This document shows, in pieces, positions 61,933-62,540 of a stretch of 64,000 nucleotides of DNA. Source of the stretch: an uncultured virus (IMG/VR IMGVR_UViG_2811995274_000001) (Duplodnaviria; Heunggongvirae; Uroviricota; Caudoviricetes). The notes under the pieces were generated by a model. The model ran no database searches. It was not told where the DNA came from and worked only from the letters and a program-made list of their open reading frames with translations. The stretch is from IMG/VR virus record IMGVR_UViG_2811995274_000001; one strand, written 5' to 3'. Each line of letters opens with the position of its first letter. Position 1 is the stretch's first letter. The position numbers and the translations under genes were made by a program.

Positions 61933-62540
61933 CGAATTGTTATTATCCATAAGTTTTTTATCTTATGCTCTGGAACTTTCGTTCATTTTCATCGATTAGT
62001 CTATTCTAATCCAGTCTAGCATATATTTTTACCCTCGTTTAACGTTAGGTTTTGTAGTCCTCTTTTATCTACAAAAGATAAGCCTATATCTTATCGTAAC
62101 GGGGACTCGTGGGAAGATTATATCTTTTCACTTCCTATGCGTTGCGCCTGACTATACTTAGTATAGCCTTCGGTCTCTGATTAGCAGTTAAGCCTTCCAG
62201 TTTAATTCCCCATTAATAATTTTAGATATTTCTATCTAAAACGGCAACAAAGCTTTTTGTTTTTGATTAACTTCATGAAGAATACTTATTTTAGCATCTT
62301 TATATTTTCTATACAAAGATATAGATTTGCTATTAGAGTAGTAAAGCCATTTTAATGCATTATTTTTCCCCTTGGTTATAGTTAGTCTATATATATTAGA
62401 ATCAAATCCTATCTTTGTATATGGTACAATTATACTTCGCTGGCATATAATACCTTCAATTTGTTATTTTTGAAGTATTATTACCTACAAAATATTGGTT
62501 ATTACTTTGGTTAATCACATATTTTTTAGCTTTTTTATCT
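61933..62540 (-). ncRNA. group I self-splicing intron (608 nt)
   Basis: Exon 1 ends in U (CACGGU), the intron ends in G, and splicing restores HPHG-DQSVY in frame; P1, P10, P3 and P7 pairings are visible. Confidence 0.88.
62236..62446 (-). pseudogene. internally deleted homing endonuclease remnant in the intron P1 loop
   Basis: RBS GAAGG plus MPAKYN start, out of frame with the tail IYRLTI...LKWLYY..SISLYRKY typical of LAGLIDADG C-termini. Confidence 0.55.

Follow-up and report, generated by a model that had tools for sequence, protein, structure and literature searches.

Classical subgroup IA introns of phages, such as those of T4 td, nrdB and nrdD and those of SPO1 and Twort, are carried in genes of nucleotide or DNA metabolism, have the extra elements P7.1/P7.2 and an endonuclease gene in a peripheral loop, and are variably present. 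GyrA is known as a host of inteins, of which the mycobacterial GyrA inteins are an example. GyrA of the S. aureus jumbo phage MarsHill (gp228) carries an intein after Y117. Like the element analysed here, it is of a mobile, self-splicing kind that brings a LAGLIDADG endonuclease into a conserved region of gyrA, but it splices at the protein level and at another site, whereas the present element is a non-coding RNA.

Introns in phage gyrA are already on record, and the element analysed here is a further member of their family. In Bacillus phage AR9 the gyrA-like gene gp044 (NC_031039.1, 'DNA topoisomerase II') is represented in RefSeq by a CDS joined from three pieces; the gene is described as intron-disrupted, and confirmation of its introns by mRNA is stated at second hand in a preprint. 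AR9/PBS1 gp044 has two introns and the gyrA of vB_BpuM-BpSp has one. The element of this study shares with them 65-78% core identity, the helices, the GCCGU guide, the 3′ motif GAUGAAAAUGA..G.AA..UCCAGAG, the gyrA host and a 5′ exon ending in GGU. The AR9 sites are IG|EYHPHG and HG|NFGS and the present one is HPHG|D, 18 nt downstream of AR9 site 1, which is also the position used in BpSp and phiR1-37; within the literature on phage gyrA introns, no description of the HPHG|D site was found. The present one contains an endonuclease-gene remnant, where those of AR9 and BpSp are without an ORF, and its P8 and 3′ third, unlike theirs, appear to come from another lineage. The intron of Yersinia phage phiR1-37 (g328/g329) resembles it in lying in gyrA and in having a LAGLIDADG ORF placed upstream of the guide and downstream of the 5′ splice site; it differs in its AR9-type site before YHPHGD and its intact ORF, and the record holds no intron annotation. 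Compared with the classical IA introns, this family has a different core sequence and is not scored by the Rfam group I model RF00028; the ORF of the present intron lies in the P1 loop and overlaps the guide, and its endonuclease is of the LAGLIDADG type.

In a blastn comparison of the intron and of AR9 intron 1 with 50,697 phage records, 15-16 records were matched and no classical model intron was among them. The core (62246-61935) is 65-78% identical to sequences in gyrA of the Bacillus phages AR9/PBS1, Goe21, Internexus and BpSp and of phiR1-37; further matches are introns in the terminase gene of a Clostridium phage and in a tail gene of a staphylococcal phage. A strict 3′ family motif, present once in the DNA analysed here with none expected by chance, was found at no fewer than 107 loci in viral contigs; among the loci listed, 8 lie in gyrA (5 at HPHG|D, 3 at HG|N). 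A reading made earlier from the sequence alone (the sequence-only reading) had considered gyrA an unusual host for a group I intron, which these gyrA members from cultured phages and metagenomes contradict. The metagenomic introns at HPHG|D (L055/G002, L069, L041, L067 and L092) belong to the same family and site; the GyrA proteins of L069, L041, L067 and L092 are 33-42% identical to the one studied here and that of L055 98%. L069 is compact, with 11 nt from splice site to guide, no P2 and almost no P8. The 3′ motif also occurs in 68 stretches of bacterial species genomes (L129-L196), most of which are labelled Bacillota, Clostridium or other Clostridia. Presumably they represent prophages or binned phage contigs, and they give a hint of the hosts that the family may occupy.

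The interrupted gyrA gene and its empty site

The DNA analysed (the window) is a stretch of 64,000 nucleotides from an uncultured virus and represents the 25% G+C replication module of a large phage. It encodes two DNA polymerase III alpha subunits, DnaG, DnaB, an archaeo-eukaryotic-type primase, an NAD ligase, NrdD, RecA, RecJ and UvrD. Both polymerase genes are full-length (14611-17979, plus strand; 29716-32817, minus strand) with PHP, NTPase, finger and HhH domains. The nrdD gene, a classical intron host, is intact at 34784-37039 in the same module. Immediately downstream of gyrB, the list of open reading frames shows two minus-strand frames in the place of gyrA: 77 codons (62771-62541) that end in ...GKFHPHG and then reach a stop, and 742 codons that start at an ATG of their own at 61950, inside the intron, and read on ...DQSVYDALVNMAQ. 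The gene is made up as follows:

62541..62771, minus strand: gyrA exon 1, 77 codons, end ...F H P H G, last codon GGT
61933..62540, minus strand: group I intron, 608 nt, absent to the base in the related record G001, with stops in three frames and a covarying fold
59722..61932, minus strand: gyrA exon 2, 736 codons plus stop, first residues D Q S V Y D A

Exon 1 ends in ...CACGGT at 62541 and exon 2 begins with GATCAAAGT at 61932. Excision of 62540..61933 (608 nt) fuses GGT to GAT, and the joined exons encode the 813-aa GyrA that the sequence-only reading had expected from splicing. Exon 1 covers positions 1-49 of the Pfam profile DNA_topoisoIV (PF00521; E 4e-22) and exon 2 positions 50-420 (E 3.5e-105), continuous at 49|50. 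Exon 2 additionally contains six DNA_gyraseA_C repeats (PF03989, E 3.1e-47), and the product thus has both the catalytic domain and the C-terminal beta-propeller repeats of a gyrase/topoisomerase IV subunit A. What annotation presents as a 742-aa 'gyrA' and a 78-aa 'hypothetical' ORF is one 813-aa gene. The sequence-only reading had expected automated annotation to call this gene broken, and such genes are indeed split in annotation, as BpSp gp105/gp106 and phiR1-37 g328/g329 illustrate.

The nearest virus record, G001 (222 kb), has 78% of sampled 31-letter words in common with the window and an uninterrupted gyrA that is 98% identical to the window on both flanks of the insertion site, thereby providing the intron-less allele in a related phage that had been proposed as a check. 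Over the site G001 has ...TTTCATCCTCATGGA|GATCAAAGT with no insert between; its gyrA reads ...TTTCATCCTCATGGAGATCAAAGT..., with GGA abutting GAT, and the G001-type empty site is CATGGA|GATCAAAG. Together with the Pfam continuity, this empty site bears out the earlier placement of the insertion exactly at HPHG|D. Exon 1 of the window ends in ...TTTCACCCTCACGGT, with C at -4 and -10 and T at -1. The window differs from G001 at eight positions in the 420 nt upstream of the site, three of them within 10 nt (-1, -4, -10) and the next only at -142; in the flanking protein 2 residues differ over 207 aa. At -1 the two intron-bearing alleles have T where the empty allele has A, and this A-to-T change provides the U of the splice-site U·G pair.

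The gyrB gene of G001 (L009, G001:C1) has two insertions that are absent from the window, at 145875-146307 and 146525-147173; in the window the corresponding positions, near 63172 and 62956, are empty. One is 433 nt long and interrupts the Toprim motif DAD|VDG; the other, about 649 nt, lies at YKGLG|EM, where G002 (a 19.7-kb contig) has an insertion too, and contains a GIY-YIG-like ORF. Both end in G and look like introns, and RF00028 scores neither.

The ribozyme fold and its covariation

The following parts of the ribozyme were located within the intron:

62241..62253, minus strand: internal guide and P10 strand; GCCGT (62245-62241) pairs with exon 1 ACGGT (P1, U·G), bases up to 62253 with exon 2
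62221..62240, minus strand: P2 hairpin, 8 bp with a GAAA loop; 7/8 pairs compensatory; in the minimum free energy (MFE) fold and in RNAalifold
62147..62214, minus strand: P3 5′ strand and P4-P5-P6-P6a domain, with compensatory/covarying pairs in the family alignment
62098..62140, minus strand: P7 5′ strand (62140-62136), P7.1 hairpin (62135-62112) and P3 3′ strand (62105-62098)
62031..62097, minus strand: enlarged P8, a 3-bp closing stem round hairpins 62095-62077, 62074-62052 and 62050-62031, in the MFE fold
61933..62023, minus strand: P7 3′ strand (62023-62019), P9.0, P9, P9.1, P9.2 and the terminal G

P1 consists of 5 bp between exon ACGGU and guide GCCGU with the U·G at the splice site, on the minus strand and as first read. 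When seven junctions were placed independently by protein alignment or empty site, P1 with its U·G was found in all seven, and all seven 5′ exons ended in GGU. The guide, invariant or nearly so among 20 relatives, is not adjacent to the 5′ splice site but 287 nt downstream of it. The P10 pairing proposed by the sequence-only reading (CAAAGU with GCUUUG) stood in part: GCTTTG is present at 62253-62248, but its pairing with exon 2 requires a one-base offset, and in register P10 of the window comprises the 3 bp GAU/GUU, one mismatch and two further pairs, with up to 8 bp in L067. RNAalifold also pairs the guide GU with the AC of a conserved AAUAAC near the 3′ end (window 62242-62241 with 61941-61940; alignment columns 13-14 with 460-461) in 19/20 sequences, where it is invariant and without covariation; this may have arisen by chance or represent a second way for the guide to pair.

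P3 is formed by AATGGGGA (62214-62207) and TCCCCGTT (62105-62098), P7 by GCATA (62140-62136) and TATGC (62023-62019), and P7.1 by GGAAG (62135-62131) and CTTCC (62116-62112). These three stems had been named in advance, as had the GAAC-GAAA-GTTC tetraloop hairpin of the P9 region, which is P9.1 at 61984-61973, and the terminal G, which lies at 61933 directly 5′ of exon 2, a boundary set by the empty site of G001. The location of P7.1, after the 5′ strand of P7 and before the 3′ strand of P3, is a subgroup IA trait and, with the covarying core, supports the earlier assignment as IA-like group I. Fourteen of the 20 aligned relatives also have P7.2; the window, L055, L041, L067, L018 and L052 lack it.

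Covariation was determined in an alignment of 20 compact family members, from the guide to just beyond the 3′ splice site, using a structure of P2, P3, P4, P5, P6, P6a, P7, P7.1, P9.0, P9, P9.1 and P9.2 in which P3 and P7 cross. Pairing was found in 96.8% of 1231 cells, and 45/63 pairs were compensatory, i.e. changed on both sides. Column shuffles paired at 75.7%, with 0/500 reaching the real value on any of five measures, and sliding the partners by 1-3 columns lowered pairing to 32-42%. Helix by helix, covarying pairs amounted to 7/8 in P3, 4/7 in P4/P5, 2/2 in P6, 7/8 in P6a, 4/5 in P7.1, 5/6 in P9, 2/4 in P9.1 and 5/6 in P9.2; P9.0 was invariant, as were four of the five pairs of P7, the fifth covarying from A-U to G-C in three sequences. 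Without a supplied structure, RNAalifold returned 55 pairs, 43 of them compensatory, which gave the same nested helices and in addition the P8 closing stem, covarying across the family. The single-sequence fold of the window core (z = -3.74) recovered P2, P3, P4, P5, P6a, P9 and P9.1, and all scored helices pair in the window's own sequence. The pairings thus exceed chance.

At the gathering score, Rfam gave no match anywhere in the window, and in the intron region at E up to 10 it gave only chance matches of snoRNA/lncRNA type, RF00028 being absent. Applied to 20 loci, RF00028 scored no family member, both AR9 gyrA introns included; its sole match (103.7 bits) was a different intron beside a family member in L020. 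Over the whole AR9 genome it found 13 introns above cut-off, none of them in gyrA, and over G001 none, whereas the family motif picks out just two introns in AR9, both in gyrA, and a single one in G001, in the terminase gene. The sequence-only reading had named the absence of a covariance-model match, together with that of a spliced product, as what would refute the intron. This test was unsound, since RF00028 misses the family yet detects 13 other AR9 introns; the model is blind to this subclass and therefore inapplicable as an arbiter, and the missing match does not refute the intron because the AR9 gyrA introns, of the same family and annotated as spliced, are missed as well. Rfam silence as an argument against the intron was rejected after the AR9 and 20-locus controls. 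Judged by eye alone, four core blocks (J3/4-P4, P4'-P6, J6/7-P7 and J8/7-P7') look recognisable but divergent relative to the RF00028 consensus: AAUUAAACUGGAAGG versus AAUUGCGGgAAA, UAAUCAGAGACCGAAGG versus uAAuCCGCAGCCAAa, GCAACGCAUAG versus UUCAaAGACUA and AAAAAUAUAUGCUAG versus gAAGAUAUAGUCu.

The viral contig L020 has two group I introns of different families 160 nt apart (L020:52-302 and L020:463-770), the first being the one that RF00028 scores at 103.7 bits and the second, of the window's family, scoring nothing.

The endonuclease-gene remnant and the 3′ domain

Between the 5′ splice site and the guide, alignment with the intron of G002 revealed a feature that the sequence-only reading had missed:

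62236..62446, minus strand: LAGLIDADG endonuclease-gene remnant, from ATG (62446) over a deletion junction (62429|62428) to stop TAG (62238-62236)

In G002 this intron occupies the identical site but is 1219 nt long and contains an intact 273-aa ORF, which spans intron base 95 to a stop inside P2, so that its last codons encode the guide. The ORF product matches Pfam LAGLIDADG_3 above cut-off (4.6e-12) and has a helix-turn-helix region at its start. Relative to G002 the window has a deletion of 611 nt, which is not a multiple of three; the remnant keeps the first 6 codons and then continues out of frame for its last 62 codons, and its tail overlaps the guide by virtue of the position of the TAG. 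The remnant peptide itself has no Pfam family match, and in comparison with the ORFs of other family loci it is similar to that of L055/G002 only. Judging from this alignment, the 5′ ~280 nt of the intron is a decayed LAGLIDADG homing-endonuclease gene. An ORF lies in the same place in phiR1-37, L041 and L067, running into the guide in the latter two as it does in G002, and is absent from L069, both AR9 introns and BpSp; that such ORF-less relatives exist indicates that no cis-encoded protein is required for the fold.

From the guide to the 3′ end the window and G002 differ by three substitutions, of which one changes a U·G of P3 to C-G and the other two lie in the P8b loop and L9; the ribozyme is thus conserved, in contrast to the decaying endonuclease gene. 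A 7.6-kb contig of run X1 has the same intron, site and flanks, and it too contains the 611 letters between 62428 and 62429. A second deletion variant is seen in a contig from an RNA library (X15), which lacks a further 169 nt (62341-62509).

In its 3′ part the intron resembles a second lineage. Core positions 41-160 are 70-92% identical to gyrA-type relatives, positions 206-245 are 92% identical to the second intron lineage, and positions 246-321 are 95% identical to the intron in the terminase gene of G001; the third P8 hairpin and all that lies 3′ of it resemble the second lineage, and the last 101-104 nt of the intron are 96% identical to the 3′ end of the G001 terminase intron. This mosaic fits recombination between introns in one genome. 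Features that weigh against a splicing-competent intron are the distance of the guide from the splice site, the unusually large P8, with three hairpins where relatives have one, and the 3′ third, which looks recombinant.

In the terminase large-subunit gene of G001 (L003, G001:C1 69180-72280, minus strand) the sister-lineage intron lies at about 1917-1511. Upstream of it the frame contains a stretch ending in ...THN|T that looks like an intein end.

Splicing, rival explanations and significance

The sequence-only observation is confirmed: the element is indeed a group I intron, and the LAGLIDADG gene within it has decayed. We consider it very probable that it is an IA-like, homing-derived intron of phage gyrA whose endonuclease gene is dead and whose ribozyme is intact and would splice. 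In the gyrB-gyrA transcript, the exon 1 end ACGGU would pair with the guide GCCGU 287 nt downstream to form P1 with its U·G wobble, and free guanosine, held by a predicted G-binding pair, would attack 3′ of the splice-site U. The terminal G (61933) would then enter the G site in P7 while P10 holds exon 2, and exon ligation would give GGU|GAU and the 813-aa GyrA. The intron would have arrived by homing in the full form seen in G002 (1219 nt), whose 273-aa LAGLIDADG endonuclease gene in the P1 loop would encode an enzyme acting on a presumed target. The out-of-frame deletion of 611 nt has killed this gene and left the ribozyme intact, and therefore the element should still splice but cannot spread alone.

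Contigs of three RNA libraries cover parts of the intron and the exons, with no contig bridging exon to exon or exon to intron. A contig of X16 covers intron-internal 62101-62324 without differences, and runs X2-X14 have word shares of 0.50-0.56, which would fit exon-only alleles. The 356-nt metatranscriptome contig of X15 starts at the first intron base (62540), a contig start being no evidence of an RNA end. Assembled contigs do not reveal where an RNA ends, and there are DNA alleles that lack the intron, so nothing is concluded on splicing from this material.

The same lack of spliced RNA in the contigs of the three libraries would be expected if the element were a group I intron by descent that is no longer self-sufficient, either needing a protein helper, such as a host factor or a LAGLIDADG protein of maturase type, or hampered by its deletion, its large P8 or its 3′ domain of recombinant origin. 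Maturase activity is known for some LAGLIDADG proteins, and here the LAGLIDADG gene is destroyed; P8 has three hairpins against one in relatives, and the 3′ third is of another lineage. We nevertheless regard this as unlikely, given that ORF-less family members (L069, AR9 introns 1 and 2, BpSp) reside in intact essential genes, that every scored helix of the window pairs, and that GyrA is needed whole and exon 2 is without decay over 736 codons. Two ORFs are indeed found, the second with its own ATG at 61950, and in BpSp and phiR1-37 such pieces are annotated as genes in their own right, as would be the case if the insert were retained and gyrA were split into products of 78 and 742 aa or were a pseudogene. 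The break, however, lies inside HPHGD, the Pfam profile runs on without a break only across the joined exons, each exon is 98% identical to an allele that lacks the interruption, and the insert folds as a ribozyme with strong covariation, a U·G and a terminal G, which together make retention very unlikely.

That the window might be an assembly artefact joining phage gyrA to an unrelated intron is suggested only by the deletion junction 62429|62428, which was not found in four runs (three RNA-library runs and one other). The same intron, site and flanks recur in the independent contig G002 and in the 7.6-kb contig of X1, and no repeat able to collapse an assembly was found at the deletion ends; such an artefact is exceedingly improbable. 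Lastly, gyrA is a classic intein host, MarsHill gp228 being an instance, but stops occur in all three frames of the insert, no intein domains are present and the sole protein match is the intact homologue of the endonuclease remnant, and the chance that the insert is an intein or another protein-level element is practically negligible. The reading as a group I intron with an intact ribozyme and a dead endonuclease gene is accordingly preferred.

The finding leaves our knowledge of group I introns and of gyrase unchanged, and its main value lies in a clean series of presence, absence and decay and in the gap that it exposes in the standard Rfam model. Since RF00028 flags neither the window's intron nor those of many phage genomes, a covariance model of this family would mend a recurrent annotation error. 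The closely related genomes show an empty site, an intron whose endonuclease gene is live, and two steps in the decay of that gene in which the ribozyme is kept, a tidy natural illustration of the homing-endonuclease life cycle. Taken jointly, the observations may even reflect a large unmodelled group I subclass tied to GGU sites, a homing cycle captured in progress and a recombinant window copy; we offer this combined reading tentatively, as a possibility that is rather less than even. If it is true, the subclass is present in at least 107 viral contigs and 68 bacterial stretches, unseen by RF00028, and the near-invariant GCCGU guide ties it to sites ending in a glycine GGU codon, which would explain its recurrence at three glycine codons within 40 gyrA codons as well as in genes for terminase and tail proteins. 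In that case G001, G002, the window and one run contig would together represent the whole homing cycle in one phage population, from the empty site through the 1219-nt form with a live endonuclease gene and the 608-nt form to the further loss of 169 nt, and the window copy would combine a gyrA-type 5′ core with a terminase-type 3′ domain from two lineages resident in one genome.
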